Assembly: GCA_016839605.1 (NCBI GenBank)
Contig: JAEOTX010000154.1
Location: forward strand, 1 to 25,326
From: Candidatus Thorarchaeota archaeon
GTDB taxonomy: Archaea > Asgardarchaeota > Thorarchaeia > Thorarchaeales > Thorarchaeaceae
Length of the DNA stretch: 25,326 nucleotides
Direction: 5' to 3'
The translations under genes and the position numbers were made by a program. The notes beneath the pieces are model-generated. The model did not search any database. It saw nothing but the letters and a program-made list of their open reading frames with translations, and was not told the origin of the DNA. Positions 905 through 16,910 of the stretch are shown one piece after another (positions within the stretch are counted from its first letter, which is position 1; each line of letters begins with the position of its first letter).

Positions 905-1315
905 ATGTCACAGAAAGGCGAACCAATGTACCGCGGTCACAAGCTCACTGACCTAGTTCAGATGAACATGGACACACTCATTGAGCTGCTCCCCTCACGC
1001 CGCAGAAGGACCCTCAAGCGAGGCCTCCCGCCCCGACAGAAGAAGCTCCTGGTGAAGCTCAGGGCCGCCCGAAAGCAGGCCAAGAAGGGGAAAGAAGTTA
1101 TCGTCAAGACCCACTCCCGCGACATGGTCATTCTTCCAGAGATGGTCGACCTCACTATCGGCGTTCACAACGGCAAGGACTTCGTTCGTGTCAAGATCAT
1201 CCCGCAGATGATTGGGCACCTGTTGGGGGAATTTTCAAGTCCAATGAAACAGGTACGACACGGCAACCCAGGAATCGGTGCTACCAAAAGCAGCGCTTAC
1301 GTGCCTCTAAAGTAA
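905..1315 (+). CDS. rps19: 30S ribosomal protein S19 (uS19, archaeal S19P)
   Basis: Motifs [49 protein letters not shown] and [21 protein letters not shown] at 905 is preceded by a GGTGA RBS at 896-900 and is preferred over TTG 872. Confidence 0.97.
1229..1315 (+). repeat. rps19 3'-end repeat, copy 0 (functional gene tail; putative integration site)
   Basis: gaa ttt tca agt cca atg aaa cag gta cga cac ggc aac cca gga atc ggt gct acc aaa agc agc gct tac gtg cct cta aag taa. Eight further copies lie downstream. Confidence 0.95.
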
Positions 1316-1410
1316 ATCTACGTAAAGACAATCCTGCTCGCTCTATTTGGAAAATCAGTTTTGTGAAGAATGATACAATAAGTTTGATTAACTGCCTCCA
1401 CTCTTCATAA

Positions 1411-2793
1411 ATGGGAGTTCTATTGAATAGGTTCTGGATCAGCCTTCTATGTATCTCACTTATCATGCCTTCCCATCTTCTATCTCTGGAAATGAGTCCC
1501 GCCATGAGTACTCGAAGTAGGTTTAGCACCCTAACTTTCGACTCATCTTCAGATAGTAGTTTGACTTCCAAAAGCTCCATTTCCATAACTAGTGATAGCG
1601 ACTTCGTCAACCAAGGCTGGTCCGGAGATGGAACAGCTGATAGCCCCTTCCTTTTGGAGAACTTGTCCATCATATCATATGATATCTGCGTCTCTGTGAA
1701 GAATGTCACGAAGCACTTTCTCATCCGAAACTCTTACTTCTGGCGTAGAAGACTGGGAAGCACTCCGATGGATGCCTCTGCCATCTTGCTGGAAAACGCA
1801 GCTAATGGCACAGTTGACAACTGTGTTATTGAGAGTCCTGGTTTTGGTATTCTGATACGTAATTCGAGTGAGATTCATCTCATTAACAGTACTTTCTCGG
1901 GCTATGATTTGGGAGGCAGAGGACAGCTGGGTGTTCTGATGGATCACTCATACAATTGCAGTATGGACGGAGATTTCTTCTCTCTGTGGTGGCAGGCTGT
2001 GCATCTAGATTTTTGCTCTAGGATTAGCATGATAAATAGCATTCTTACAGAAAACCATGACGGAGTGGATATGTACTACTGCAACAATAGTGTGTTGATC
2101 AACAATACGATAGTCCAGAATGATAACACCGGAATCCATCTTTCATTGAGCTCTAACAATAGCATCTATGGAAACAAGATTGGAATGAATGAACACCAAG
2201 CTTTCGATAGCAAAGGACCCAATCTATGGGATGACAATCAATCTTTGGGAAATGGGTGGGGCGACTATAGTGGCATTGGCACCTATGCCATCCCAGGGTA
2301 TGCAAATAGTGTCGATCGCTATCCCTGGTTTGCTAGCGACTTCAACTACACAGTACGAGACCAAATTGGACCCACTATACTACATGGCCCCTACATAACC
2401 TCAACTGGACCAGATATCCGTAGGGCGTGGCAGTTCACAGCAACAGCCATTGATCCATCAGGAGTAGATACTGTAATAGCCTTCTATCGCTTTTGTGGAG
2501 AGGAATCTACATCTGTGAAGTTGAACCAATCGAGATACTATACTGACGAATATGAAGGGCGAATTGGTGTACCAGACCCATATAACGGATCCATCGAGGT
2601 CTATTACTGGGCAAATGATAGTCTTGGAAACAGCAGAGATTCAAATGTGGTTCGCTTTTCTTGGAATGGACCTCGTCCTTCAACTCCCCAACCATCATTG
2701 GAAATACTATCAGTTGCAGCTGTAGTAATCACTCCTCTAGTTTTACTCATCGTATTCGTGTTTCTCAAGAAGACTCGAGAGTCACATCGGTAG
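1411..2793 (+). CDS. Secreted NosD/CASH-type right-handed beta-helix protein with C-terminal membrane anchor (cassette 1)
   Basis: Signal peptide; GW.G.GT..SPF.LENL motif; repeated G(I/V)xL...N..I.N beta-helix repeats; GNxWGDY motif; C-terminal hydrophobic helix plus basic tail. Confidence 0.85.
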   Translation: MGVLLNRFWISLLCISLIMPSHLLSLEMSPAMSTRSRFSTLTFDSSSDSSLTSKSSISITSDSDFVNQGWSGDGTADSPFLLENLSIISYDICVSVKNVTKHFLIRNSYFWRRRLGSTPMDASAILLENAANGTVDNCVIESPGFGILIRNSSEIHLINSTFSGYDLGGRGQLGVLMDHSYNCSMDGDFFSLWWQAVHLDFCSRISMINSILTENHDGVDMYYCNNSVLINNTIVQNDNTGIHLSLSSNNSIYGNKIGMNEHQAFDSKGPNLWDDNQSLGNGWGDYSGIGTYAIPGYANSVDRYPWFASDFNYTVRDQIGPTILHGPYITSTGPDIRRAWQFTATAIDPSGVDTVIAFYRFCGEESTSVKLNQSRYYTDEYEGRIGVPDPYNGSIEVYYWANDSLGNSRDSNVVRFSWNGPRPSTPQPSLEILSVAAVVITPLVLLIVFVFLKKTRESHR

Positions 2794-2828
2794 TCATGTG
2801 GACACTCTGATACACAGCGCTAGGCTTA

Positions 2829-2915
2829 GAATTCTCAAACCCAATGAAACAGGTACGACACGGAAATCCTGGGATAGGCGCTACAAAAAGCAGCGCTTAC
2901 GTGCCTCTGAAGTAG
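2829..2915 (+). repeat. rps19 3'-end repeat, copy 1 (intact)
   Basis: Encodes [28 protein letters not shown]. From ATG to stop it has 9 substitutions versus copy 0, all silent. Confidence 0.97.
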
Positions 2916-2940
2916 TTCAAGGTGTATAGATCACGCCTTG

Positions 2941-3936
2941 CTAATACTGTTTCAGTTGCCTACCTATCAAGACAATTGAAACAGCTGCTAAAGCCCAGAG
3001 TATTGCTATTGCTAGAACTTCATTTGGCAAAGGTGTACCGAGCCCTGTTGGTAAAATCGTTTCTGTTATCGAAGGACCCACAAACCACTCAGGATCAGTC
3101 AAAGCACCCACAAAATCAGTCGAAGGACCCACACTATCAGTTGGCACTCCAGTAGGTAGCGCGTCCACCACATGCACTGTAACTGTATCCATTTCTTGAC
3201 TCCAGCCACCATCTATAGTCAGTCGATAGACATGCTCTCCAAGTTCGAGACCATCCACATTGATGGTAAGCGCCTGATTCCATATCCAATTGTGTTGTTC
3301 AAGAAGAAGGCCATCCTTCAATAATACATACCGAAATCCATGGGACGCAGTAGCCCAAGTCACTTCGTGACCAGTTGTCCCGAGTAGGTACCAAAGGTCG
3401 GGAGTGTCGTATAACTGGGGATCACCATCTACAGTCAATACAGTTCCGCCCATTCCAAACTCCAATAAGGGGGACTGAGCAACATTCCCCAACGTGTCAG
3501 TTGCCACATAGAATACCTGGCGAAATGTATCATATACTCTCCCTCCTGTGGAGTTATAGGAAAACCCGAGATTCGCTGCGAACAAGTCCGCTCTGTCTTC
3601 AGTTTGAACCATTGTAGTCTGATCCCATACACTGCTCCCGCGATCAGCATAATGCATTATCACAGAGGCAATTCCATCAGGATCCTTAGCCAGTACCTTC
3701 ACCTCCAGATTGTAATTGTATCTTTCCGCAGCATAATATTTCCGAGGGTAGTATTCCATGGTTGGGTTGCTTCCTTCTCCAGGAACATCCGATTCGTCAG
3801 CAATTGTCAGTGTTGCATTGGAATACTCGGCTGATTCTTGATTTGTTGCAACTGTTTTCATAGATGGAAGGCTAGAGGTTATTACAATGACATGGAGAAT
3901 TAGAAGGAGTGCAGCACCTCTGGTGGTGATTTTCAT
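2941..3936 (-). CDS. Secreted, membrane-anchored hypothetical protein (cassette 2); paralog of 15979-16908
   Basis: Signal peptide after ATG 3936 (the ORF extends to 3960) and a C-terminal TM helix. Shares IADESD.PGEGSNPTMEYYPRKYYAA and LYDTPDLWYL.G.TGHEVTW with the 15979-16908 product. Confidence 0.85.
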   Translation of the reverse strand: MKITTRGAALLLILHVIVITSSLPSMKTVATNQESAEYSNATLTIADESDVPGEGSNPTMEYYPRKYYAAERYNYNLEVKVLAKDPDGIASVIMHYADRGSSVWDQTTMVQTEDRADLFAANLGFSYNSTGGRVYDTFRQVFYVATDTLGNVAQSPLLEFGMGGTVLTVDGDPQLYDTPDLWYLLGTTGHEVTWATASHGFRYVLLKDGLLLEQHNWIWNQALTINVDGLELGEHVYRLTIDGGWSQEMDTVTVHVVDALPTGVPTDSVGPSTDFVGALTDPEWFVGPSITETILPTGLGTPLPNEVLAIAILWALAAVSIVLIGRQLKQY

Positions 3937-4032
3937 TCTTAATGTACCCTCCACACCCATCGAATAGGGTACTATTGAAATTAAGTTTGCGTTCTTTCAG
4001 CTAAACTGGAATATTGAATGAAGGACATGTGC

Positions 4033-4113
4033 TCAAACCCAATGAAGCAGGTCCGACATGGCAACCCGGGGATAGGTGCAACCAAGAGCAGCGCTTACGT
4101 GCCTCTAAAATAG
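4033..4113 (+). repeat. rps19 3'-end repeat, copy 2 (intact)
   Basis: Encodes [26 protein letters not shown]. From ATG to stop it has 10 substitutions versus copy 0, all silent. Confidence 0.97.
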
Positions 4114-4136
4114 TGAACTGCGCCAGTGCGTGATAG

Positions 4137-4174
4137 GCACCCCTTTCCTTAAATTTGTTTGAAACTAATGTATG
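4137..4174 (+). promoter_or_regulatory. Putative promoter module shared with 9078-9115
   Basis: gcacccctttccttaaatttgtttgaaactaatgtatg, 30/38 identical to 9078-9115. Contains a TATA-like TTAAAT about 60 nt before the start codon. Confidence 0.5.
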
Positions 4175-4193
4175 GATTGTTTGAAGCAATTCA

Positions 4194-4982
4194 TTGAGGG
4201 GAACCGGTAACTTGTCAAAGGAGTATATAGTTGAAACAAAAAACCTGTCAAAGTCATTTGGAAACATAAGAGCGCTTGATTCAGTCAATTTGTCGATAAA
4301 GGAAGGTAGTAGGTATGGTTACTTAGGTCCAAACGGCGCAGGCAAAACAACCACGATACGAATACTGAGTGGTCTTCTTGAATGCACTAGTGGAGATGCC
4401 ACAGTTTGCGGATATGATATTCATTCTGAGAATAAGATGATCAAACGCCACACAGGTCTTCTTCCTGAAACAGCAGGTCTCTACTCGAAGCTCTCAGCGT
4501 TTGAGTTCCTTGAGTTCATAAGTGCATTATATAGAATGCCATCAGATGAAGCACATTCCAGGATAAGCAAGCTTCTCTCGACACTGGGCTTAGAGAGTAG
4601 GCAGAACGATGCGATAGAAACCTTCAGTTCGGGGATGAAGCAAAAAGTACTCATTGCCTCAACTCTAATCCACGATCCGCAACTTGTCTTTCTCGATGAA
4701 CCTACAGCATATCTTGATCCCGCAATGAGTGTCCTGGTAAAGGACCTTATACTTGCCCTTTCGAAGCAAACTAATACCTCATTCTTCATCTGTACTCATC
4801 AAACAAGCTTTGCGAATGATGTCTGTGATGTCATTGGGATTCTAGATAATGGTAAGCTCTTGATTGAGGGTCCTACACAGGATATTATCAAGAGCTTTGA
4901 TGCTGATAACTTAGAAGATGCATATGTGAAATTGGTTGGAGGAGAGGTAGACAAAGAGCATTTGCTTGATTGGAGGGGCTAG
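4194..4982 (+). CDS. ABC transporter ATP-binding protein (ABC-2/drug-exporter type; cassette 3)
   Basis: Walker A GPNGAGKTT, signature FSSGMKQK, Walker B VFLDEPT, H-loop CTH. The true start may be TTG 4212. Confidence 0.95.
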   Translation: MRGTGNLSKEYIVETKNLSKSFGNIRALDSVNLSIKEGSRYGYLGPNGAGKTTTIRILSGLLECTSGDATVCGYDIHSENKMIKRHTGLLPETAGLYSKLSAFEFLEFISALYRMPSDEAHSRISKLLSTLGLESRQNDAIETFSSGMKQKVLIASTLIHDPQLVFLDEPTAYLDPAMSVLVKDLILALSKQTNTSFFICTHQTSFANDVCDVIGILDNGKLLIEGPTQDIIKSFDADNLEDAYVKLVGGEVDKEHLLDWRG

Positions 4983-6625
4983 CAGGATTGAGCCAGTGGA
5001 AAGCCATCGCCATAGCTGATTTCTATGCAAGTACGACAAGATTCAGAGGGCGCAGAAGGGAGTTCTTCATTATATTTCTCTCAATAGTCCTCATCTGGGC
5101 TTTTGTCATTGTTCCTTTTTTAGTCGGATTCCTTTTTGATAATTATCCTTTCCTTGAAGCTTTGGCCCTCGTTAATCCAATTGGATTAGTGAGAGTAGTT
5201 TTATTGGCAGTCTTATTCATCATCATAACATATCCTTCCTCCTCCGCGCTCCAAGAGTACAAGTTCCGCGATTGGGAACTTATTCTCAGCTGTGATGTAG
5301 ATACGAAACAAATACTCGCGGGAAAATTCATAGGTAAGCTGCCATCCTTCTGTCTGCTTCTACTTGCTTTGCTTCCATTCCTGATTTCGTTCCTCGATGC
5401 AGCATTTCGAATTTCACTCGCAGGCCAGCTATTAATCTATGCAGAGATCACAGCTTTTTCCATCTGCACATATGGATTGTCAATTGTCATTTGGTCGGGG
5501 ATTCAAGCCAGACTCAACCAATCATTACGGGGCGATTTCTATGCTAAGGTCATTTCAGTTGCGCTCATACTACCGGTTGCTTTTGCTTATGGACTAATGG
5601 CTTTCTTAGAGCAACTGACAGGAATAATGGAGAGTGGACTCTTACTTTTACTTCCGTCAACATGGTCTGGTGACCTTGCAGCTTGGATCATCCTTCAAAA
5701 CAATGCGTCGATATCCCCATCCGCGCTCCCGTTAGGTCCTGAGCCTTTGACGATTCTCTTGGGATGTTATGGACTCGGCATCCTATTCATTGGTTTCTTT
5801 TTCACTGATAGAGTATTCACCATTGCATTAGGCGCTAGGCTAGAAAGTCATAAGACAATGGGAAAGGAGAATTTCTTCCTGAGATTCGTTAGAAGGATTT
5901 GGCCTGGCTATTGGGGATCGTTGGTTGCAACGAGTTTCAAACACATCTATAGAAAGCCAGAGAACAATGGGAAGATAGTGTATGCATGTGCGGCATCCAT
6001 TCTGCCCGTACTAATATTCCCAATTCTCGCTATTTCAGCTCCTACAAAGCCACCACCTGACTTTGTCTTATTATTCAGCTTCCTGTCGATGCTTATGGTT
6101 TTCCCGCTAGTAGGCGCGTTAATGTTTGGAGGAATTGGTTTCTTTGAGAACAAGTACCAGCTTTGGGTGATCCAAGATGCTCCGGATGGAGTTAAATTAT
6201 TCACAACAGGTCGCCTTGCTGCTTATGCTGTATCTGCGGCTTTTCTAGCGGCAGTACCCACAATTGGGATTGGTATCTTTTACTCATCTCAACCCTTAGT
6301 TGCGGTCATCCTCTTTGGCTGTGCATTTGCGCTAACAATGGCCGGGACTCTTCAAGGGATGGGCATCGCATCCATCAATCCCGCATATGAAGATGAGATA
6401 TCGCCTCCATTGAACATCTTGGTCACATCAGTTACTGCATGGGGGCTACCATTTGTATTGCTTTTCGTGGGTCTTCCTTCTATCTCTCCAATCATCAACA
6501 CTTATTTCTCCGGCGCTATTGCTTTGCTCTTAAGCATAGTACTCTCGATTATTCTTCCCTTGTTATTAGTAGGCCTTGTTTTATTCTATATAGGCATGAA
6601 GAATCTGATGAGAACGAGCAAGTAA
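4970..6625 (+). CDS. Multi-pass membrane protein, probable ABC exporter permease (cassette 3)
   Basis: 551 aa with many hydrophobic helices; overlaps the ABC ATPase stop codon. Confidence 0.8.
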   Translation: MEGLAGLSQWKAIAIADFYASTTRFRGRRREFFIIFLSIVLIWAFVIVPFLVGFLFDNYPFLEALALVNPIGLVRVVLLAVLFIIITYPSSSALQEYKFRDWELILSCDVDTKQILAGKFIGKLPSFCLLLLALLPFLISFLDAAFRISLAGQLLIYAEITAFSICTYGLSIVIWSGIQARLNQSLRGDFYAKVISVALILPVAFAYGLMAFLEQLTGIMESGLLLLLPSTWSGDLAAWIILQNNASISPSALPLGPEPLTILLGCYGLGILFIGFFFTDRVFTIALGARLESHKTMGKENFFLRFVRRIWPGYWGSLVATSFKHIYRKPENNGKIVYACAASILPVLIFPILAISAPTKPPPDFVLLFSFLSMLMVFPLVGALMFGGIGFFENKYQLWVIQDAPDGVKLFTTGRLAAYAVSAAFLAAVPTIGIGIFYSSQPLVAVILFGCAFALTMAGTLQGMGIASINPAYEDEISPPLNILVTSVTAWGLPFVLLFVGLPSISPIINTYFSGAIALLLSIVLSIILPLLLVGLVLFYIGMKNLMRTSK

Positions 6626-6988
6626 GGATGGAACGAAGCTAGCTCCGAATCCAAGCGGTTTGCAGAACCTAAGGGATGATTGCTCGAATTAGAGGCAATC
6701 CTGCTAAAAGGAGGGAGCAACGTGGAGTCATGTTACCATATGATTGGGCTTTGATATTAAGGTGAAACCCTACCTCGGGTACGACGTGAAATATGGCGTG
6801 AAGTGAAATGAGGAAACGAAAGAGCTGAATGGCCTTTGGTTCTCCGTCTACTCCGCCAGGTACCCAGGCACTTGGTATGTTTGGCTCAAGGAGTCACTCG
6901 ACCAGATTGCGACCCACATCCTTGACAAAGACATACTGAAGTCAAAGACTTAACTATCGTATTTTTTGGGGAGCCTAGTCAAGAACCG

Positions 6989-7004
6989 TTGACCAATTGG
7001 TCAA
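6989..7004. promoter_or_regulatory. Perfect 16-bp palindrome, candidate operator
   Basis: TTGACCAATTGGTCAA is its own reverse complement and lies in a ~600 bp non-coding stretch. Confidence 0.45.
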
Positions 7005-7224
7005 TGACCCTAGGATTATATCCCTTCGCGACATGCTTAGACACATGGAGTCGATGTAATCTCGCAGAAACTTGGAAATTACAATATTGTACTAATTCCT
7101 AGTAAAGTAGGATTACTCTTGTATATCGCCTTGAGAACTTAGCTTTAGATTTCACATGATTGATTATTTGGTCGTACAATAGAACCTATTCCAGACAACC
7201 GAGAGGTTTGATCTCAGTTGTTAG

Positions 7225-7279
7225 TTTTCAAATCCGATGAAACAGGTACGACAAGGCAACCCTGGTATAGGCGCTACCA
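7225..7279 (+). repeat. rps19 3'-end repeat, copy 3 (3'-truncated)
   Basis: Encodes [18 protein letters not shown], then similarity stops about 6 nt before the stop codon of the convergent ORF at 7286. Confidence 0.92.
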
Positions 7280-7285
7280 GCGGGG

Positions 7286-8125
7286 TCACATGTAAGGCAT
7301 GTAATCACGCCGTTTCCCCAATTTCTCTGCAATCAAACCGCCACCTAGCAAAGGTGGGATGATATAAACTGGACCAAAAATCACCAATCGAAGAACTAGA
7401 GGAATTGAGGGAGTAGCTAGCCAGCTCACAAAGGGAACAGCTAGCAAGCCCAGAAGATATACCCAAGCAAGTATGAGTGGCATACTGAAGAAACATCCTA
7501 ATCCTACAATCCAAAACAATCTTCTGAACCTGAAATTATCGAGTCTTCTCCGAACGTAGTAGAAGAAGAATCCAGACATACCAGTGATGATAGTCCAGGT
7601 GATAATCTGTGTGGGTTCCCATACTCCGAGGCTCACCAACACCACACACAGCACAAGCGCAGTGACAAGCGACAAAGAAACTAGCAGAGTCTTCCCTCTA
7701 TTCCACTCAGGGACTGGCAGGCTCTGACCTGACCTATGCTCACGTATCAGGTTTGTGATTCTATATGCTGGGTTAGCCTTGATTTGAATCTCAATAATCT
7801 TAGCTCCTTCAGCGAAATCCTGAACCTCCAAGAGCTCCTTCAATCTTTGTGGAGCTTGATTCCTGCTGAGAGTCCTCCTTTCTATCTCTTCATTAGTGTC
7901 CACAACACACGTTTCAAGTAGGGTAGCAGTTGCTCCAAGAGAGCCCTCCATGAATCCCCCCTCATTGAGATAGTCCCACAACTCCTCTGCAACGCGAGAA
8001 TAGAGTTCTCCGTCCCACGATTGTTTGCTCCACTCTTCCACAAGGGCATATAGCGTTCTCGGGGACTTGCTCATCTTGTGGCTATTCGGGGATTCTTCCG
8101 TTGGGTTCGGTTGTGCATTCTCCAT
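7286..8125 (-). CDS. Hypothetical membrane protein (soluble N-terminal half, ~4 C-terminal TM helices; cassette 4)
   Basis: 279-aa ORF with ATG start and a hydrophobic C-terminal half. Confidence 0.75.
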   Translation of the reverse strand: MENAQPNPTEESPNSHKMSKSPRTLYALVEEWSKQSWDGELYSRVAEELWDYLNEGGFMEGSLGATATLLETCVVDTNEEIERRTLSRNQAPQRLKELLEVQDFAEGAKIIEIQIKANPAYRITNLIREHRSGQSLPVPEWNRGKTLLVSLSLVTALVLCVVLVSLGVWEPTQIITWTIITGMSGFFFYYVRRRLDNFRFRRLFWIVGLGCFFSMPLILAWVYLLGLLAVPFVSWLATPSIPLVLRLVIFGPVYIIPPLLGGGLIAEKLGKRRDYMPYM

Positions 8126-8372
8126 CCTAAGCGCCCAACTACTAACCTCTCTCGATAGACTAATCGTATAGAATACTTTTAAGCTATTTTCTTATTCGAC
8201 AATGACGCATAACATAATTTAGCTTACTCTAGTTGAGTGCTGATTCCGTATCTTCCATGACAGTCATAGGATACACCTTTCACAAATACATAAGTTTTCA
8301 ATTTACACTCATTTGGTAATCACACAAGTGAGTAGGGCTAATTCGATTATGTATTGTGAAGGATATGTGCGC

Positions 8373-8398
8373 GAGCGTGTGACAGGCCCGCAAGCTGG
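8373..8398 (+). repeat. Second repeat family, copy A (ERVTGPQAG-encoding)
   Basis: gagcgtgtgacaggcccgcaagctgg, 22/26 identical to 12651-12676. All 4 mismatches are at third codon positions. Confidence 0.7.
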
Positions 8399-8577
8399 CA
8401 CATTTTTCCTTTCAAGAAGGATATCATTCTTTGTCGCCTATGATAAGAGATACAATGACTCACGCTCACCGAGTGCAGGATGTTTCGTTGGCGTAAGGCG
8501 TGGCGAAACGCCGTTATACTCTTAAGGAAGTATGATTCACCATAGTTACTTAACTCATTATGTGGGGATTTTAAGAA

Positions 8578-8886
8578 ATGCAGGAACAGATGTTTGTAAT
8601 ACCTATTCCGCCTCTACTTGCTCTTGGGTTTCTGATCGGCATCATATTACTGGTTCTCGGCTATCGAGAGGAATCTGACCTAACGAGACGTCATCATCTA
8701 ATGGGTTCAGGTGTAGTAGTCATAGGCATTATGATTCCAATCACTCCACTTAGCTGGTATGGCTATTGGATAGTGACCAGGGGGCTGGTGCTGGGGCTTG
8801 TTGAAATCGTTATTATTGCTGTTGCCCTGATCGTTGGTATCCTTCTCGTGTACAAAGGTGTCAAGACTTACTCGGGACCTCAATAG
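8578..8886 (+). CDS. Small membrane protein (3 TM; cassette 4)
   Basis: 102 aa with three hydrophobic segments and an ATG start. Confidence 0.75.
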   Translation: MQEQMFVIPIPPLLALGFLIGIILLVLGYREESDLTRRHHLMGSGVVVIGIMIPITPLSWYGYWIVTRGLVLGLVEIVIIAVALIVGILLVYKGVKTYSGPQ

Positions 8887-8952
8887 AATACCCGCGCTCC
8901 TCTGGCAGAGTATTTTCTCAGGCAAGCTGGATTGTTCGCTCAATTATTTAAC

Positions 8953-9036
8953 TTCTCAAATCCTATGAAACAGGTCCGACATGGCAACCCGGGGATAGGT
9001 GCAACAAAAAGCAGCGCTTACGTGCCTCTGAAGTAG
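8953..9036 (+). repeat. rps19 3'-end repeat, copy 4 (intact)
   Basis: Encodes [27 protein letters not shown]. From ATG to stop it has 9 substitutions versus copy 0, all silent. Confidence 0.97.
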
Positions 9037-9077
9037 AATACGGACACTGTAGTTTTCTATTTGAGAAGGGCGCTTAT

Positions 9078-9115
9078 GCACCCTTATTCTTAAATTCGCT
9101 CAGAACTAATGTATG
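9078..9115 (+). promoter_or_regulatory. Putative promoter module shared with 4137-4174
   Basis: gcacccttattcttaaattcgctcagaactaatgtatg; TTAAAT lies 60 nt upstream of GTG 9150. Confidence 0.5.
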
Positions 9116-9149
9116 ACGCCTTCAATCTGCTTAACCTGGGAGTGGTTAT

Positions 9150-9884
9150 GTGAAAAGGCGTAAAAAATTTGCAATCGTATATTTAGTCTGTATGCTGGCG
9201 GTTCCTGTTTCTGTTGCAGCGAATAATCAAGGTCTAAGATGGGTGGGAGAAGTTGGAAACCAATTTGAGTTCTCTTTTACACTCATTCGAAATACATCTT
9301 GTTTCTCCCCAGTATTTTGTGAAGAACTGTGCATAGAAAACGAAGCTATGTATATGGAGATAGACTCCCTCTTACCAATACCCGATAACCTTCAATTCTT
9401 TGAAGAGATACCATCACCTGAGGTTTCATTATACTATAAGAATGGCACAATTCTAAGTCTTTCAGATTTCATGATGATGTTTCCCCAGATTGGTAAGCAG
9501 TTCATATTGCCTGTCGGCAACTGGCACCTTCTTACCGCATTGCCATCAAATGCGACCACTACCACAACTACCATCACTACCACTGCAACCACCGGTAACT
9601 TCGAATCGACTCAAATAGACAATTTAACTCATTGGGGTTGGCTATGGTCGTTCTCAGACTCTCAAACCCAGCAGGAAGGAATTCACGCATACTATAAAGC
9701 AGATGGAGTTCTTGGGTACTATACAAGAAGCATTGTTAGTGACACGGAATTAGTGACAATTTCATTCATCCGACTGAATCCACCTGATCCAGTTCCTCCA
9801 GCAATCGGAATCATAGAGCTTGGCATAGTAATTGGGGGAGTGACTGCAGTGGTTGTCATTGTTGTAATGAAAAGAAAGACGTAG
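9150..9884 (+). CDS. Secreted membrane-anchored protein, 'ANNQGL' family paralog 1 (cassette 5)
   Basis: Signal peptide, AANNQGLRWV, YMEIDSLLPIPD, ILPVGNW, a Thr-rich tract and a C-terminal TM with basic tail. Confidence 0.85.
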   Translation: MKRRKKFAIVYLVCMLAVPVSVAANNQGLRWVGEVGNQFEFSFTLIRNTSCFSPVFCEELCIENEAMYMEIDSLLPIPDNLQFFEEIPSPEVSLYYKNGTILSLSDFMMMFPQIGKQFILPVGNWHLLTALPSNATTTTTTITTTATTGNFESTQIDNLTHWGWLWSFSDSQTQQEGIHAYYKADGVLGYYTRSIVSDTELVTISFIRLNPPDPVPPAIGIIELGIVIGGVTAVVVIVVMKRKT

Positions 9885-9917
9885 AGAATTGAATTAAGAA
9901 ACCTCAGTTGACATCAG

Positions 9918-10001
9918 TTTTCAATTCCAATGAAACAGGTACGACATGGCAACCCTGGTATAGGCGCTACAAAAAGCAGCACTTACGTGCCTCTGAAGTA
10001 G
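9918..10001 (+). repeat. rps19 3'-end repeat, copy 5
   Basis: Encodes [27 protein letters not shown] (A>T in the core). Confidence 0.97.
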
Positions 10002-10095
10002 ATCTGCGGGTTTCTTAAGCCCCCCATCTTTTCTCATCAACTGACAAACAGCCTGCCAGCACTCTCTCTCAATACGTTTAATAGATGACTATTCT

Positions 10096-10869
10096 GTGCG
10101 CTCCTCGACTTCACATGGAGGGGCAATGATGTTCTGGAACTTGAAATTGAAGACTCTATTGGGATCTTTTTTTATGGTATTCTTTTTGCTTTCACAAGTT
10201 ACTTGTGCGGCAGCCGCAAACAACCAAGGTCTAGAGTGGGGCATCGATGTGAGTGATCGTATCGACTATGATATAGAGATAGAGTTTCGTAATTCGACAC
10301 TAGATTTTGAGATAGATGACGGGATGTATCTGATTATTGATAACCTACCTGTCATCAATGATGACATCATTGGCCTTTCGGAGTTGTGCCTTCCAACGAT
10401 GGTTTTGAACCACTACACGACATATTGGGAGAATGAAACTCCCATGGACTTTTTCTGGGAGAGATATGTGAATATGGAACCGGTGGATATACTTCCCATT
10501 GGTAACTGGACTCTGATGACTCAACTGTTGGAAGACGCCACACCGACAGCGGATATGACCCAAAATTCTTCGACCTTGAGTTTCACAGTCTTGAACCTAC
10601 CAAACCCAGGCAATGAACTGACTACGATCTTTTCGAAGACCGATGGTATGCCTGTATATCATCTTTACAACGTAACATGGGGAATGGACACAACTATCGT
10701 AGTAGAGCTAGAGAGAATTCTTCCGTCAACAACCAGCTCCATTCCAGTAACTACCTCTGGTTCAACGAGCGCTCCACCACCTGGCAATAACACTATCCCC
10801 ATGACACTAGGAGCTATTGCTGTAGCTGTAGTAGTCATTCTGATGTTGGTCTTTCTACGTAGAGGATAG
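10096..10869 (+). CDS. Secreted membrane-anchored protein, 'ANNQGL' family paralog 2 (cassette 6)
   Basis: AANNQGLEWGI, YLIIDNLPVIND, ILPIGNW, a Ser/Thr/Pro linker and a C-terminal TM. The true start is probably the downstream ATG (~10126) after GGAGG. Confidence 0.85.
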   Translation: MRSSTSHGGAMMFWNLKLKTLLGSFFMVFFLLSQVTCAAAANNQGLEWGIDVSDRIDYDIEIEFRNSTLDFEIDDGMYLIIDNLPVINDDIIGLSELCLPTMVLNHYTTYWENETPMDFFWERYVNMEPVDILPIGNWTLMTQLLEDATPTADMTQNSSTLSFTVLNLPNPGNELTTIFSKTDGMPVYHLYNVTWGMDTTIVVELERILPSTTSSIPVTTSGSTSAPPPGNNTIPMTLGAIAVAVVVILMLVFLRRG

Positions 10870-10932
10870 ATACCACACGGCAACCCGGGGATAGGTGCAA
10901 CGAAAAGCAGTGCTTACGTGCCTCTGAAGTAG
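10867..10932 (+). repeat. rps19 3'-end repeat, copy 6 (5'-truncated)
   Basis: tag ata cca cac ggc aac ccg ggg ata ggt gca acg aaa agc agt gct tac gtg cct ctg aag tag. [18 protein letters not shown] is intact and abuts the stop of the upstream ORF. Confidence 0.95.
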
Positions 10933-11086
10933 ATTTACTGGTTTCTTAGTTTTTTTGATGAAAAGGGGCTTTATGAACGTTCGAGCACAGGATGTTCCGC
11001 GAAGCCCTCCTTCAAGCTTCTATTTCTGTTAACGAAGAACCTGCTTGAAATATCGGATTCTGTAGAATGTGAGCGCAAAATTTGGT

Positions 11087-11779
11087 TTATTCTCTTCTGA
11101 GTACTGCCAGCACCATTAGAATTACTACAGTGCCGGCCATGACCATTCCTGCAATTCCTAGTGGTGAATCAAATGGGAATGGCAAAGTTACTCTTTCAAC
11201 CAGTGAAATCCTGCGTAGGCCATCATAATACTCTCTAACGATCCTTATGTAAGATGTATGAAGTACTCCCGTTGTCCTCACGTAGATATCTGCGAGGGTA
11301 TCTGTTCCTGATTCATGGAAAACCGTGAAATTGTATCCAATGAGGTAAGGTGTGTTGATAATGTCTTGAGTCACGTTTTCCTCAGGTTGATTTGACCACT
11401 GTCCTTCCCAGATATTCACAATAAGGCCCCAGTTGCCAACTGGAAGTACGTCCCAACTAGAAGACCCCTCGATTTCGGTTCCATTTTCATAGAACCGCGA
11501 TGCCCCAACTAAGCGCGAAAGGTTTCTCATTGCGGTGATATCATCTGGGATGCTTGGAAGACTATCGATTATAATGTAGAAATTCTCCTCTCTAGGACTG
11601 GTTTCATTTTGATTTTGTATTGTAAACTCTCCGAAATCGTGATAGTCAAATCTACTCCCGATTGTGACACCCCAATACAGACCCTGATTATTTGCAGCAC
11701 TCACTGGGGTTACAACAATGCACAGAACAAATAGTATAGCCATCAATTGAGAGAATAGACTCTTGGACATATGTCGCAC
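11087..11779 (-). CDS. Secreted membrane-anchored protein, 'ANNQGL' family paralog 3 (cassette 7)
   Basis: AANNQGLYWGV, YIIIDSLPSIPDD, YENGT, VLPVGNW and a C-terminal TM. Confidence 0.85.
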   Translation of the reverse strand: MRHMSKSLFSQLMAILFVLCIVVTPVSAANNQGLYWGVTIGSRFDYHDFGEFTIQNQNETSPREENFYIIIDSLPSIPDDITAMRNLSRLVGASRFYENGTEIEGSSSWDVLPVGNWGLIVNIWEGQWSNQPEENVTQDIINTPYLIGYNFTVFHESGTDTLADIYVRTTGVLHTSYIRIVREYYDGLRRISLVERVTLPFPFDSPLGIAGMVMAGTVVILMVLAVLRRE

Positions 11780-12160
11780 CTCAACTTACGAATCTGTCAA
11801 TGTTCCTCTACCTAGATATTGATGGCTCTCTGAAACTATAAACATTTGTTCCCAATTCGCTTGACAATGGCGACTGCAATGACTGTGTTGTGCAGAGAAA
11901 GGAGGGTGCTGGAACAAGAGAAACCAGCTACTATAGATCTTCACTTAGCTACACAAAGTGATGATTACGGCTTCAAAGGATAAGGATAGAGAGAAAGCGC
12001 TCAGCAGCAGCTGTGAATCCATTAGAATGGATTCCTAACGAGGATGTAACCCTCTACGTAGGATTGTGATGTGTTCTCGTCCAGAAGAATCAACCTTACG
12101 TTGCTCCGATGCCTATTGGTCCAGCTAGTGGTACATTCCTTAATCGCTCAGCAGTCATAA

Positions 12161-12619
12161 ATGCGGATTGCCTTCAATGAGTATTTGAGGGACAATAGAT
12201 TGCCTTGGTGGCCGCAGGTTATTGTAAGACCAAGAGTTCGAATTGTAATGCCCAACCTTGGACTACCCACTTGTCCGCCCAAAGCTGCGGTGTTCAGCGT
12301 TGTAATTCTTGCGGTCCTTTTTGTATTGGGAGGCAACATCTATACACTGATCATGACTCCTCCGCCAATTGCAGGCTTCTCAAATGGATTGCCAAGACTC
12401 TTTGCACCTGGGCTTGATGCCCAGCTCAGCATAGAGGGCATCGTGGCTTCAGTTGTGGCTTTTATTGGTGTTCTGGGACTTAGTCTGATCTACTACTCTT
12501 CTAGATACGTCTTCACCCCTAGCGATGCAACCCGCTTGATGATACTCGGTATGATTCTCACTGGAGTAGCATTCCTCACCTACAGTTACATGTACGCAAT
12601 CAAGATACAAGTGACCTGA
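12161..12619 (+). CDS. OST3/OST6-family oligosaccharyltransferase subunit, OSTC/DC2-like (cassette 7)
   Basis: 152 aa, 3 TM. LFVLGGNIYTLIMTPPPIAG and QLSIEGIVASVVAFIGVLGL match the eukaryotic OSTC/DC2 pattern (GGIIYD.I.EPP..G ... QY..EGL..S..F..G.LG) from recall; no search was run. Confidence 0.75.
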   Translation: MRIAFNEYLRDNRLPWWPQVIVRPRVRIVMPNLGLPTCPPKAAVFSVVILAVLFVLGGNIYTLIMTPPPIAGFSNGLPRLFAPGLDAQLSIEGIVASVVAFIGVLGLSLIYYSSRYVFTPSDATRLMILGMILTGVAFLTYSYMYAIKIQVT

Positions 12620-12650
12620 TCTAAGCTCCTGCAACTCATATGCGCTGCAC

Positions 12651-12689
12651 GAGCGCGTGACAGGACCTCAGGCTGGACCTTACGCCTAG
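12651..12689 (+). repeat. Second repeat family, copy B (ERVTGPQAGPYA*)
   Basis: gag cgc gtg aca gga cct cag gct gga cct tac gcc tag; intergenic; matches 8373-8398. Confidence 0.7.
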
Positions 12690-12787
12690 TGCAGAATCTT
12701 TGTCGTCTTTCTAGTACGTATGTCAGCCCAACGGCTCATTTATCTAAATACGCCTATTGGATTGGCACCGAGGACGGGTTGATTGCA

Positions 12788-13438
12788 ATGACCAGCGATG
12801 ATCTCCACAACGATTTATACGGCGTGAATCCGAGAGTCATAGCTGCGATAATGGGTGTCTTCACACTATTGACACCTTATGGCTATCTGCCTAGTTGGTG
12901 GGCTCTTGGGTACCCTTTTGTATACCCAGAGCCGGGCTTTATATACTCCCTCCTCTGGGCCTTTAGCTCCCGTGCCGGGAGTGTGGGACTTCACAACTAT
13001 GTCGTCTACAACCCTGCTCTCCTTTGGGCCACGCTTCCTCTCAGCATATGCAATGTCATCTTTGCTTTGAAAGTCGTGAGGTACTATCAGGACAGAACCA
13101 GCAAAGACAGCGTCTTAAGATGGGCAATTGTTGCATTTATCGTACCTATCCTTGCTCTGTTTGTCCAGGGGGCAATCTGGATTGTAATCGGAGCACTGTT
13201 CGATCCCACTATAGCGTTTGGAGCAGGTTTTCAGCCATATTTCGGCCCCATTCCAATTCAGATTGCAGTAGGACTATTCATTGTGTACCATATCCCAGCC
13301 CCAGAACTAGTCACTCCATGGACAGCCCCCGAGAGAGATGAATCATGGTGGATAGAAGAAGATATCGAAGAGTCACATTTTGCAGAGCTCTTCATCACAA
13401 TGGAAGAACTCGATGAGATATACAAGATGTGGGACTGA
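12788..13438 (+). CDS. Hypothetical membrane protein with acidic C-terminal tail (cassette 7)
   Basis: Several TM helices. ATG 12788 is preferred over GTG 12689. Confidence 0.75.
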   Translation: MTSDDLHNDLYGVNPRVIAAIMGVFTLLTPYGYLPSWWALGYPFVYPEPGFIYSLLWAFSSRAGSVGLHNYVVYNPALLWATLPLSICNVIFALKVVRYYQDRTSKDSVLRWAIVAFIVPILALFVQGAIWIVIGALFDPTIAFGAGFQPYFGPIPIQIAVGLFIVYHIPAPELVTPWTAPERDESWWIEEDIEESHFAELFITMEELDEIYKMWD

Positions 13439-13485
13439 CTTGTTTTGGAATTGCACAAGCTAGACGGAGCTGTATCGGGTCATTC

Positions 13486-13776
13486 TTACAGCGTTGCTGA
13501 GCCTCCCTCTGGCAAAGAACGAATTTGGATTATGAGGTCTATGGTTTGAATGGTTGTCGAGAGTAGGTAGGTCTCTAGAGTGAGAGGGGAAATATGATAA
13601 AACAGGAATGAAACGGATGGGATTAGAAGCAGGAAGGATGCGAGTTGCCAGAAGATGAAACATGCAATACACGTATAGATTCGGCCTCTCTTGTCCTTTA
13701 CAGCAACTCTACCAATTGCATAGGGGAGGGCCAAAACGAGAATGCTAGGCGGATCGATGATAACGAGGATACTCAA
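13486..13776 (-). CDS. Small hypothetical membrane protein (cassette 7)
   Basis: 96-aa hydrophobic ORF; start uncertain. Confidence 0.45.
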   Translation of the reverse strand: MSILVIIDPPSILVLALPYAIGRVAVKDKRGRIYTCIACFIFWQLASFLLLIPSVSFLFYHISPLTLETYLLSTTIQTIDLIIQIRSLPEGGSATL

Positions 13777-13898
13777 ATCTCAAACCACGTTATGATATAC
13801 ACCTTTTCTCGCCAAATGATTTTCGAATCATGGAATCACACTTCTGTAAGTTTGCAATCATACCGCTATTACTCGTCCTTTTTTGCCACTGTCTAAAG

Positions 13899-13982
13899 TT
13901 TAGCAACCCTATGAAACAGGTACGACACGACAACCCGGGGATAGGTGCAACCTAGAGCAGCGCTTACGTGCCTCTAAAATGA
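13899..13982 (+). repeat. rps19 3'-end repeat, copy 7 (decaying)
   Basis: Encodes [26 protein letters not shown], with G>D and K>TAG. The first Ser is encoded by AGC instead of TCA. Confidence 0.96.
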
Positions 13983-14058
13983 TGTCAAAGCAATAATAGC
14001 CAATATCAATTTGCACCTATGTGGATTTCTTGCAATGTTCCATCTCATTCGAGTTGTT

Positions 14059-14976
14059 TCATTCCCTCTTGAGATAAATCGCAATTCCCAAAGCTAGACA
14101 AATCATGGCAACTAGAGTAGTCACGAGTATTAGGTCATGTCCATTAGCACTTGGGAATGTTGATACTGAACCACTGAGCTTATGCAAAGTTGCCGAACCC
14201 AAACCTTCGCAAGTCCAAAATGCTCCATCAAACCAAGTTAGACCACTACTAGCTCCATCGGTTTCCATAACACCAATTGATTGTAGAGAGTTCCCATAGG
14301 AATCAGCTGCTTCCCACACATGAATTGTATCCAAGGATGTGCCAGGTTTTGAGCAGTAAAGGACTCCACCCACTTCAACGAAATCCTGAATGTTATTAGA
14401 TGGTGGAGGTCTAATATCATTCAAGCGAATCCTGCTAAGGTCATACACATAGAGATTACTGGTTCCGTAGTTTGCAATATAGACTCGCTCTAGCAGAGGA
14501 AGGATGCATATTCCGCCCCAGTGCACATTACCGATGGAGCTGCTGTTAATCCACTCATCAATGAACAAAAGGTCAGTATCATATCGGACAATCTTGGAGG
14601 GGTTATTGGGAACAAGCCCTCTTTCTGAAAGTGGAATCCAAAGAAGACCATCATAGAAGACCATCCCTCCGCAATGATTGAGCGTGTCGTCGCGCACAAG
14701 TACTTCATCAATATAGGTTCCGTTAGGGAATAGTTTGTATAACCAAGCATCGCCGTTGCCGATCACAGTTTCTGCGGTGCTGATGTAAAAATATTCTCCA
14801 TCGGTTGCGAGCCCCTCTACTTCACTGTCGGTAAACCATGTGAGTTCAATTGAGAGATCGATCTCTGCAATGTTATACCCCGCTCTCTGTGACTGCGTCA
14901 TGTGAGTGATGGAATTACCAGCAGGCAAAATCAGCAGCAATCCGAGAACCAATGGTAATGCTAAACAGCGACGCAC
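14059..14976 (-). CDS. Secreted, membrane-anchored putative beta-propeller protein (cassette 8)
   Basis: Signal peptide; repeated blade-like motifs (EGLATDGEYFYIS, GGMVFYDGLLWI, SGLTWFDGAFW); C-terminal TM. Confidence 0.75.
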   Translation of the reverse strand: MRRCLALPLVLGLLLILPAGNSITHMTQSQRAGYNIAEIDLSIELTWFTDSEVEGLATDGEYFYISTAETVIGNGDAWLYKLFPNGTYIDEVLVRDDTLNHCGGMVFYDGLLWIPLSERGLVPNNPSKIVRYDTDLLFIDEWINSSSIGNVHWGGICILPLLERVYIANYGTSNLYVYDLSRIRLNDIRPPPSNNIQDFVEVGGVLYCSKPGTSLDTIHVWEAADSYGNSLQSIGVMETDGASSGLTWFDGAFWTCEGLGSATLHKLSGSVSTFPSANGHDLILVTTLVAMICLALGIAIYLKRE

Positions 14977-15115
14977 TTCTTACAACCAAATGGAGCTCTT
15001 GATTTGATGTTCATAAGCTTTGCCGCGGGCGATACGCAATCTTGCAACACGTGTTCCAAGAGATAACAAGATTAAGGTGATTGGAGAATCTTCACTGGAT
15101 TAGGGAGGATTACAG

Positions 15116-15880
15116 GTGCCAGAGCGGCCAAGCGAGAAGTACTATCGTGATACAGCAAGATTCTATGACGCATTTGTAGAGCGGCCAGATGAAACCCTCT
15201 ACCTAGAGCTTGCAGAAAGATTTGGATCGCCTATCCTAGAGCTTGCTTGCGGAACAGGAAGAATCACACTCATTCTTGCACAAGCAGGCTACGATATCAC
15301 AGGAATTGAGCTCTCTCCCGAGATGCTTGAGATTGCACAGGAAAAACTGCAGCAACTCCCTGACGATGTCCAATCAAGGGTTTCATTGAATCATGGAGAT
15401 ATGACGAATTTCAAGCTAGACAAGAAATTTGCAATGGTCATCATACCATGGTCTTTCAAATTTCTACTAACAACAGAAGATCAACTTGCGTGTCTTAGGC
15501 AAGTTCGAAAACATCTGGCTGATGATGGCGTATTCATTCTTGATCTCTACCCACGCGAGATAATAGATTTAGATGAAACAGAGAGGTACACTGTAGAGAT
15601 TGATGGGGCCACCATTACAAGGACTTACACCTATTCTACTGACATTCTGGCCCAGACAAGACGCTGCGATGCAACTGTAGACGTGGTTCATTCAGATGGC
15701 AAAGCTGAGCGAGTAGAGACTAAATCTGTTGTATCATTGATCATGCCAAGAGAGGCTGAACTTCTTGTTAGAACTGCTGGCTTTGAGATTGTTGAAGAAT
15801 ATGGTGGAAATGACTTCTCAGAATACACGCCTGATGACTCGAAGAGGGTATTAGTTCTCAAGAAGAAGACCGATAGTTGA
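15116..15880 (+). CDS. Class I SAM-dependent methyltransferase (cassette 8)
   Basis: ILELACGTGR motif I, GIELSPEML, GDM, HL..DGVFILD. Confidence 0.93.
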   Translation: MPERPSEKYYRDTARFYDAFVERPDETLYLELAERFGSPILELACGTGRITLILAQAGYDITGIELSPEMLEIAQEKLQQLPDDVQSRVSLNHGDMTNFKLDKKFAMVIIPWSFKFLLTTEDQLACLRQVRKHLADDGVFILDLYPREIIDLDETERYTVEIDGATITRTYTYSTDILAQTRRCDATVDVVHSDGKAERVETKSVVSLIMPREAELLVRTAGFEIVEEYGGNDFSEYTPDDSKRVLVLKKKTDS

Positions 15881-15889
15881 AGCCAGGTT

Positions 15890-15970
15890 GAGTTTCCGTT
15901 GAAACAGGTACAACATGGCAACCTTGGTATAGGCGCAACCAAGAATAGTGCATACGTGCCTCTGAAGTGA
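15890..15970 (+). repeat. rps19 3'-end repeat, copy 8 (most degenerate)
   Basis: Encodes EF--PLKQVQHGNLGIGATKNSAYVPLK*: 4 amino-acid changes plus an apparent 6-nt deletion. Confidence 0.93.
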
Positions 15971-15978
15971 TGAATTTA

Positions 15979-16908
15979 TTATTGTGACTGACGTTTCCAA
16001 TATACTACAATTGACAAGACAGCGACTGCAATGACTGATACAGATATCAACAATGGCAATATCAGGCCATCCTCATGATTTAGTATTGGGTTCCTATTTG
16101 GTCCAACACTACCAGTTGGTACTCCAGCAGGGAGCTCATTCACAACGTGCACGGTTACATTGTCTATACCTGTGCTAAATCCACCATCCACGGATAATCG
16201 ATAGACATGATCCCCCGAGGGGAGGCCGTCCACATTGATAGTCAAAGACCCGACCCATATGTGCTTTTCAAGAATAAGCCCATCCTTCAATAGCGTATAG
16301 TAGAACCCACCGTACACAGTTTCCCAGGTTACTTCATGACCTGTAGACCCCACTAAATACCATAAATCAGGAGTATCGTATAAATCACCATCATAATCAG
16401 CAGTCCATGTTATCTGAGCCAGTCCAAATTCCATAATGGGCGACTGTGCAACGTTTCCGAGTGTGTCATTTGCTATATAATACACCTGGCGATAGGTATC
16501 ATAAAGATACCATCCTGTAGAGTTATAGAAGAATTCGAGTGTGGTTGTGAAAATGTCACCACTGCCAGCACTACGTGTCATCGGAGTCTGATTCCAATCA
16601 CTGCTTCCTCGATTGGCGTAGTACATAATCACCGAGTCAATACCGTCAGGATCCCTTGCCAGGACACTCACAGTAAGAGTGTAGTCGAAGTTGGCAGCAG
16701 CATAATATTTCCGGGGATAGTATTCCATGGTGGGATTGCTACCTTCACCAGGAATGTCAGACTCATCAGCAATCATCCATTTCTCATTATAGAGCTCAGC
16801 TGATTGGCTATCTAACAGCAATTCATTTGATGAAGGGTAATTGGAGCTGATTGCAACAACATGTAGCATTAGAAAGAGGATTAGGACGCTTCTGGCATCA
16901 ACTCTCAT
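15979..16908 (-). CDS. Secreted, membrane-anchored hypothetical protein; paralog of 2941-3936
   Basis: Long shared blocks with the cassette-2 protein; signal peptide and C-terminal TM. Confidence 0.85.
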   Translation of the reverse strand: MRVDARSVLILFLMLHVVAISSNYPSSNELLLDSQSAELYNEKWMIADESDIPGEGSNPTMEYYPRKYYAAANFDYTLTVSVLARDPDGIDSVIMYYANRGSSDWNQTPMTRSAGSGDIFTTTLEFFYNSTGWYLYDTYRQVYYIANDTLGNVAQSPIMEFGLAQITWTADYDGDLYDTPDLWYLVGSTGHEVTWETVYGGFYYTLLKDGLILEKHIWVGSLTINVDGLPSGDHVYRLSVDGGFSTGIDNVTVHVVNELPAGVPTGSVGPNRNPILNHEDGLILPLLISVSVIAVAVLSIVVYWKRQSQ

Positions 16909-16910
16909 GC

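Follow-up and report, generated by a model that had tools for sequence, protein, structure and literature searches.

Free-standing homing endonuclease genes that carry a copy of a gene end are known from fungal mitochondria, where mobile open reading frames (mORFs) with a C-terminal duplication are found at atp6 of Allomyces macrogynus and at atp6, atp9, cox2 and nad3 of Glomus (PMC3630166), as well as at cob and atp6 of Endoconidiophora (PMC6279837). These mORFs cleave the alleles devoid of the ORF and bring in a foreign C-terminus (PMC3630166; PMC6279837). They are the closest known counterpart of the system described here, a row of displaced 3′ ends (tails) of the ribosomal protein gene rps19 in a stretch of 25,326 nucleotides (nt) from Candidatus Thorarchaeota archaeon (contig JAEOTX010000154.1 of assembly GCA_016839605.1, C84 in our numbering). 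We call the whole stretch the window and the genome it belongs to its own genome (G000; 3.08 Mb, 80% complete). Our analysis indicates that this array most likely represents a stack of remains from successive invasions by a free-standing LAGLIDADG homing-endonuclease element, with homologous reshuffling on top. As with the mORFs, a free-standing gene (LAGLIDADG or, for mORFs, also GIY-YIG) lies near the 3′ end of a conserved gene, and a synonymously diverged foreign C-terminus is supplied while the native one is displaced downstream. Unlike them, the Thorarchaeota case lies on an archaeal chromosome, with up to eight stacked tails and accessory cargo genes. Its endonuclease gene is convergent and separate, with a long acidic and helix-turn-helix (HTH)-repeat N-terminus, a partner gene and a membrane ATPase. 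Furthermore, endonuclease-free units are reshuffled between genomes, and one enzyme family is spread over many targets.

Other systems share parts of this picture. In T-even phages, free-standing endonucleases promote intronless homing, and the abstracts of two reports deal with homing in trans by MobE (PMC2790892) and with segmental amplification by SegB (PMC13096335). According to these abstracts, a break in an enzyme-free allele is likewise repaired with co-conversion of the flanks, which can move elements without mobility of their own, T4 MobE being the precedent for the movement of enzyme-free neighbours (PMC2790892); but the enzymes are of the HNH or GIY-YIG type and act in phage genomes, and no replacement tail or stacked gene ends are described there. 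In streptococci, integrative and mobilizable elements (IMEs) and cis-mobilizable elements (CIMEs) accrete in tandem at the 3′ ends of rpsI, rplL, rpmG and rpmE (PMC5704250). The likeness lies in the serial build-up at a ribosomal gene 3′ end, in the restoration of the gene by a direct repeat and in the decayed integrase-less units behind the newest element. However, this accretion needs a tyrosine integrase and attL/attR sites with a conserved core, neither of which was found in the arrays. Integrons and integrase-less attC clusters, to which a preliminary description of this DNA had compared the locus, have in common with it small, mostly one-gene units, co-oriented repeats, a newest unit next to the platform and a varying order, and to this extent the analogy stands. 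It fails for IntI and for recombination at a fixed attC, as the array repeats are coding tails and not attC hairpins, genes lie in both orientations, and the crossover position varies. Searches of the open-access literature turned up no description of gene-tail arrays or of LAGLIDADG elements for Asgard archaea.

Displaced rps19 tails in the window and in relatives

The window holds an intact rps19 (uS19) at 905-1315 (+), encoding 136 amino acids (aa) from the ATG at 905 (PF00203, E 6e-30), and its product is 98% identical to a protein in the cluster that NCBI names Thorarchaeota S19. Eight displaced copies of the final 55-88 nt of the gene lie 3′ of it, all in the same orientation. With the gene's own tail included (n = 9), the copies start at 1232, 2832, 4030, 7225, 8953, 9918, 10849 (where the matching part begins at 10868), 13899 and 15887, at spacings of 1600, 1198, 3195, 1728, 965, 931, 3050 and 1988 nt. 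Our sequence search thus recovered the nine + strand copies, and the units of one to four genes in either orientation between them, that had been reported earlier. The displaced copies are 80-89% identical to rps19 (E 1e-24 to 2e-10). For the 57-nt conserved part, the best match in 100 shuffles was 34 of 57 positions, against eight real places at 70% or more, and a sequence search of the assembly found no tail copies on the other contigs of the own genome.

We give the 5′ edges of the tails as minus positions counted from the end of the rps19 stop codon. An edge at −82 to −88 is kept in six of the eight displaced tails: tail 2 (2829-2915, about −88), tail 3 (4032-4113, −82), tail 4 (7223-7279, −86, its final 29 nt missing), tail 5 (8953-9036, −84), tail 6 (9916-10001, −86) and tail 8 (13897-13981, −86, with a stop inside). 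Tail 7 (10868-10932) is 5′-shortened, with its edge at −58 to −65 and the first ~20-26 nt missing, and directly adjoins the stop codon of a cargo gene, while tail 9 (15894-15969, edge −77) is the most diverged full copy, 75-81% identical to the others. The last ~84-94 nt of rps19 correspond to the currently functional, replaceable tail. Of the differences between this gene and six full tails, 64 affect the third position of a codon, 15 the second and 7 the first. Codons 110-115 (window 1247-1268), just inside the tail edge, are family-wide among the most variable of the protein, with an entropy of up to 2.7 bits, which may reflect escape from cutting or ordinary tolerance. Upstream, a TPR gene (266-826, +) is the conserved neighbour of rps19 and forms the fixed flank outside the array. 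Throughout the family rps19 lies behind this gene, separate from the rpl3-rpl4-rpl23-rpl2 cluster, and the absence of a ribosomal gene downstream may be what lets arrays accumulate.

The comparison covered 86 Thorarchaeota-family genomes (G numbers) and additional metagenome loci (L numbers). The tail peptide is matched in 73 of the 86 genomes and extra tails occur in about 33, whereas 52 rps19 loci from more distant archaea, 32 of them with at least 2 kb downstream, yielded none. Edges at −81 to −90 were found for 49 of 74 tails and no tail is longer, though the codons upstream are highly conserved. When each tail is compared with the gene of its own genome, 518 codons are identical, 539 differ synonymously and 95 non-synonymously. 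Since the differences are mostly synonymous, the tails are former working alleles and not target duplications, and a target-site duplication produced by a staggered cut is thereby ruled out. The variation of the array between relatives that had been foreseen was also found, with common cargo units recurring in different order and slot. Indeed, the unit directly behind rps19 in G072, G080 and G086 is the second unit in G083, G085 and G066, and G014 has, compared with G009, one extra unit between rps19 and a common unit. At one locus (L047, G078:C188:12412-12591) two tails follow one another directly, separated by about 7 nt only, a "unit" hard to reconcile with cassettes. A weak tail in G065 was discarded, and a match at a contig start in G012 is probably the gene's own end. 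The G004 contig C1 carries two complete rps19 genes 55 kb apart (1263512, −, and 1318878, +), each with its upstream neighbours, perhaps through a merged assembly.

LAGLIDADG elements at rps19 and an empty/filled pair

Behind rps19 of the relatives, a recurrent set of genes points at the gene: one of ~305 aa, one for an HTH-repeat protein of 660-1240 aa and, often, one for a membrane ATPase with weak HerA and CedD matches. The large HTH-repeat protein has two LAGLIDADG motifs at its C-terminus, and in each of the 59 complete domains both catalytic residues are acidic. The top Foldseek matches of its model (pLDDT 71.5) are I-Tsp061I, PI-SceI, the TliVMA intein and I-DmoI; the TM-scores are low, and the fold was assigned from many concordant matches. 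The ~305-aa partner was considered as a recombinase and set aside, as Pfam, NCBIfam and the Atlas gave no identification. The endonuclease gene is present at rps19 in G066, G067, G071, G074, G078, G087, G090, G091 and G094, and remnants of the element in G017, G021, G093, G003 and G056, so that 14 of ~53 rps19 loci are followed by the element or by what is left of it, as are the metagenome loci L207, L214 and L215. The locus L215 holds a complete three-gene element of 7.5 kb (partner, LAGLIDADG, ATPase) closed by a tail, and further complete elements are found in G091 and, split over two contigs, in G087. In L215, L214, G091, G071 and G087 the endonuclease gene lies outside any intron or intein, between the new and the displaced gene end, and the same arrangement is found at sufS, ahcY, scpB and an Sm-like gene. 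Across relatives we observed a decay series from the full element to a stump and then to a hairpin alone, this hairpin standing behind 18 of 73 tails compared with 1% of control gene ends. At one rps19 locus (L081:3700-4900, G017:C33) a CRISPR-like repeat array directly follows the partner gene.

The endonuclease family gives about 150 matches in 51 of the 86 genomes. In a quick tree all rps19-linked enzymes fall inside one 18-row clade (SH-aLRT, a Shimodaira-Hasegawa-like approximate likelihood ratio test, 97), with a core of 8 rows at 98, and the ahcY-, sufS-, rpl2- and Sm-linked enzymes each cluster by target. Displaced tails occur at other targets too, namely sufS (two genomes, with an identical edge), ahcY, scpB, an Sm-like gene (two tails) and 5S rRNA.

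The outcome of insertion can be read in one pair. The metagenome locus L217, whose rps19 locus has no element, shows a single difference from G071 over 2.56 kb upstream and is 99.8% identical to it downstream. The G071 rps19 equals that of L217 up to −95 and differs at 26 sites from −94 on; it is followed by the hairpin and then by the endonuclease gene, and the displaced tail agrees with L217 at every base from −83 on. As in mORFs, the carried tail is foreign (26 differences) and the displaced one native (no difference from −83). The previously suggested replacement rps19 tail brought by the units and the insertion next to rps19 are both seen here, the latter also in G014 versus G009. The proposed small circular cassettes integrating in the Campbell manner do not fit, however, as both G071 copies lack the native bases −94 to −84 (11 nt). 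Nor is a reciprocal crossover at a duplicated core supported, because it would conserve these bases, and their absence also rules out that the empty allele arose by pop-out from G071. If a break between −95 and −83 were repaired on a donor template, both the junction and the edge distribution would be explained, and judged from the sequences the cut would lie within about 12 nt.

Inside the window, a terminator-like hairpin follows tail 5 (9063-9090, +, score 22.9) and a second, half-decayed copy follows tail 7 (10960-10987, +, score 17.0). The motif was trained on eight element-bearing alleles with the hairpin behind rps19, and among 2218 control gene ends the 99th percentile is 5.9 and the maximum 13.4. 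The region after tail 3 scores 4.0, under the threshold, and holds a weak third relic (4122-4175, +), with 41 nt at 78% identity to the sequence following tail 5. The hairpins after tails 5 and 7 are presumably relics of the proximal end of the element.

Tails also recombine with each other. The first tail of L214 derives from tail 1 of G066 at 24 of 24 informative sites between −90 and −54 and from G066 tail 2 at 10 of 11 between −40 and −1, and the intervening unit is missing. Other tail pairs crossed over at or before −80, near −67, or at −48 to −35, and such scattered crossovers between tails point to homologous recombination. Moreover, wobble identity in five pairs is 0.71-0.74 in the TPR gene and 5′ rps19, 0.45 at −150 to −87 and 0.33-0.46 in the tail; a drop that begins upstream of the tail is as expected from co-conversion.

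We therefore favour the following scheme. A full element would comprise a new rps19 tail, the hairpin, the ~305-aa partner, the HTH-repeat LAGLIDADG gene, the membrane HerA/CedD-like ATPase and optional cargo. Its enzyme would cut an rps19 that lacks the element, at a point about 83-95 nt upstream of the end of its stop codon, and repair, as the empty/filled pair suggests, would copy the element in, leaving a recoded foreign tail on the gene and pushing the old tail to the far end. The series across genomes shows the endonuclease gene then decaying to stumps and finally to the hairpin alone, with cargo units of 0.4-5 kb left behind, and the mosaic tails show that homologous recombination between tails deletes, adds and reorders units. 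Endonuclease-free units could spread as well if a resistant allele served as the template for repairing a cut one. We take the window's eight units to be putative relics of such elements, each of which may once have held the enzyme or may have come in as an enzyme-free donor allele; cleavage of rps19 and transfer from cell to cell are presumed.

Competing explanations and points against the element

An insertion of the integron type, in which an orphan site-specific recombinase would act in trans on small tail-bearing circles at an att core near codon 110, could account for the sharp upper limit on tail length and for insertion next to the gene with the same cargo in varying order. In the window's genus a 5-bp inverted pair with a 7-nt spacer is even readable at the edge, but this TTTCA-N7-TGAAA pair was rejected as an att core, as it is seen only in that genus and its spacer is variable. 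We consider this explanation very unlikely. The supposed core varies more than any other part of the tail, the 11 native bases are missing in the empty/filled pair, and the crossovers occur at several positions, in disagreement with the use of the tail as an att site with a fixed crossover. Furthermore, the orphan tyrosine or serine recombinase expected to co-occur with the arrays did not turn up: PF00589, PF00239, PF01548 and TIGR02249 (tyrosine, serine, IS110 and integron recombinases) have no match in the own genome, which is 80% complete, and PF00589 is found in just 29 of the 86 relatives. No integrase or recombinase lies on the fetched array loci, in agreement with the earlier statement that the units carry none. 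The contigs of four runs, which drop rare forms, list no tail-to-tail circle joint, and a read joint 1234-8962 in run X4 was rejected as an excision product, one side being only 30 nt long with 6 extra letters; it is probably a relative's rps19. Accretion of IMEs and CIMEs at the rps19 3′ end, with lost tyrosine integrases and the LAGLIDADG gene as a passenger, appears to us equally improbable. Streptococcal IMEs do insert at ribosomal protein gene 3′ ends, where they accumulate together with decayed CIMEs (PMC5704250), and the HerA/CedD-like ATPase of the full elements would be possible for a transfer element. Yet the complete elements (L215, G091 and G087) have no integrase, the endonuclease clades follow the target gene, which is unexpected for a passenger, and the junctions are non-conservative in the one pair known.

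We find only marginally more credible that the endonuclease seeded the first tails and that the arrays of the genus now grow, without any cutting, only as incoming DNA recombines with them by ordinary homologous or homology-facilitated routes, a proposal that differs from repeated invasion partly in degree. That recombination takes place within tails is proven by their mosaic structure, the own genome has no rps19-clade enzyme, and cargo common to a 5S-tail array implies that genes also move by other routes. On the other hand, hairpin relics stand behind two tails, and the six tails with the −82 to −88 edge lie behind unrelated upstream sequence; for a common edge, one site must have been broken repeatedly, or many independent junctions must have been inherited over a long time. 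As for a chimeric assembly of strain variants joined at rps19, contigs of many relatives do break at tails, breaks for which the tail repeats account, and the assembly was made without long reads. Tails that differ by 5-25%, some of them truncated or interrupted by stops, are however not live alleles, and arrays are present in about 33 genomes, G009 and G014 having degraded tails that are orthologous. Single unitigs also bridge tails at even depth in two runs. In run X1, mismatch-free single unitigs cover 907-2912, 2886-4077, 4053-9000 and 9007-11063 at an even depth of 26-29x, the pieces of run X4 are similar (each of the two being possibly the source run), and run X7, from a separate study, gave short pieces with zero differences. 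A chimera has, in our judgment, a negligible chance of being the explanation.

Repeated invasion by a LAGLIDADG element has its own difficulties. No remnant of the endonuclease, the partner or the ATPase was found in the window, and the hairpin, which lies behind only two of its eight tails, could be an old rps19 terminator. The four members of the endonuclease family in the own genome are at other loci and outside the rps19 clade, and in the window's genus we found no intact rps19-clade enzyme, only the partner-gene remnant of G003. The 18-row clade also holds the rpl2- and Sm-linked subclades, so that the rps19 rows are not exclusive, and the tree is a quick one without bootstrap. In G071 the filled allele is spread over two contigs, with the displaced tail on the second, and the five pairs of the wobble gradient were chosen by TPR gene among close relatives. 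Related genomes in our counts are not independent of each other, and cleavage of rps19 by the LAGLIDADG enzyme is a predicted activity.

Cargo, 5S rRNA arrays and other targets

The units of the window, from 1 to 8, hold 1, 1, 2, 2, 1, 1, 4 and 2 ORFs, in both orientations, and most of the cargo encodes proteins that are membrane-bound or predicted to be anchored at the surface. A crude test, applied alike to both sets, assigns 8 of the 16 genes in and just after the array to predicted surface proteins, against 2.8% genome-wide. Unit 1 (1411-2793, +) encodes a 460-aa beta-helix (NosD-like) protein with both ends hydrophobic, and unit 2 (2941-3960, −) a 339-aa predicted anchored surface protein that is 60% identical to the product of 15979-16908. 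Unit 3 (4194-6625, +) encodes an ABC ATPase (262 aa) and a partner with 12 transmembrane segments (551 aa), a cargo also found with different upstream sequence in run X5. In unit 4 (7286-8886), genes for membrane proteins of 279 aa (−) and 102 aa (+) flank a 5S rRNA fragment. Unit 5 (9150-9884, +) encodes a 244-aa predicted anchored surface protein and unit 6 (10096-10869, +) a 257-aa protein of the same family, to which unit 7 also contributes. The latter (11087-13776) encodes proteins of 230 aa (−), 152 aa (+, OST3/OST6-like), 249 aa (+) and 96 aa (−), and unit 8 (14059-15880) a 305-aa DUF6454-like protein (−) and an S-adenosylmethionine methyltransferase (+). Two more genes for predicted anchored surface proteins lie beyond the last tail (15979-18245, −), and genes common to other genus members resume at 18410. 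Further on, an ORF of 418 aa (22235-23491, −) is IS200/IS605 TnpB-like, a name given from its sequence with no family search made; a 73% identical relative sits just upstream of rps19 in G071.

Like the hairpin relics after tails 5 and 7, the 3′ halves of 5S rRNA genes nested in units 4 and 7 are absent from the preliminary description. The first (8358-8414, +) is 92% identical to the Rfam-confirmed 5S gene of G015, and the second lies at 12638-12679 (+). In the own genome, an 11-copy hairpin-repeat array (C20:3077-14806) is a row of 5S 3′ halves, and further ones are at C122:31-106, C156:11192-11263, C125:63-116 and C39:989-1035, the C125 copy at the far end of an ATPase-LAGLIDADG element. 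An intact 5S gene did not turn up in the assembly, which is 80% complete. In G015, G100 and G056 the full 5S gene, confirmed by Rfam, has LAGLIDADG genes from a different clade as its neighbours; the G015 locus (L032) was discarded as a source of the rps19-array endonuclease, being of this other clade and beside an intact 5S gene. Traffic between the two kinds of array is apparent from three unit-7 genes that have counterparts of 70-87% nucleotide identity in the C20 array, and from an rps19 tail lying between the 5S gene and a 5S tail in G015.

Several other loci bear on the range of the enzyme family. A LAGLIDADG clade lies between rpl23 and rpl2, in the same direction, in L187 (G066:C215), L203 (G063:C42) and L147 (G075), and in L187 a short Met-Gly-Arg start left behind rpl23 is a weak hint of a displaced gene head. 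Serial GC-rich repeats stand beside a partner/LAGLIDADG pair in L183 (G004:C1, near 424 kb) and L177 (G065); they have no Rfam match at the gathering threshold and are possibly an undescribed RNA target. In the own genome, three co-oriented GC-rich intergenic repeats of ~120 nt lie between single genes (C244:3921-6087), on a contig that also has a partner-gene homolog, possibly another tail array of an unidentified RNA. A truncated family member (C106:35143-35966) ends 15 nt from a tRNA-Glu and adjoins a CRISPR-Cas block with duplicated leader/repeat segments at its borders (27507-27688 and 34850-35031). One displaced actin 3′ tail (C255:7461-7502) lies ~4 kb downstream of the actin gene (C255:11578-12717, −) with three ORFs between, and two near-identical tRNA-Arg genes, with anticodons CCG and GCG, are 435 nt apart at C22:8354-8866.

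A wider reading is possible, and we put it forward tentatively: Thorarchaeota may have a genome-wide, recombinase-free gene capture in which LAGLIDADG elements, each specific for its target, use a membrane ATPase of their own to pass between cells and keep reopening the ends of essential genes (rps19, 5S rRNA, sufS, ahcY and others), while the displaced tails act as portable homology arms by which endonuclease-free cassettes of surface-protein genes spread in trans and arrays trade cargo. If true, homing and homologous recombination would together make up a system functionally equivalent to integrons.

If the array arose by repeated invasion of the LAGLIDADG element, rps19 would be a gene-collecting hotspot that needs no integrase, and a process of fungal mitochondria would extend to an archaeal chromosome in a stacked, cargo-bearing form. 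An enzyme family whose targets can be read from the neighbouring gene would offer a natural set of meganuclease-target pairs, and the 3′ end of uS19, a phylogenomic marker, would be horizontally replaced in the Thorarchaeota family. For Asgard archaea, such a scheme would provide a testable mechanism by which accessory genes, especially those of predicted surface proteins, may be collected and reshuffled without integrases.

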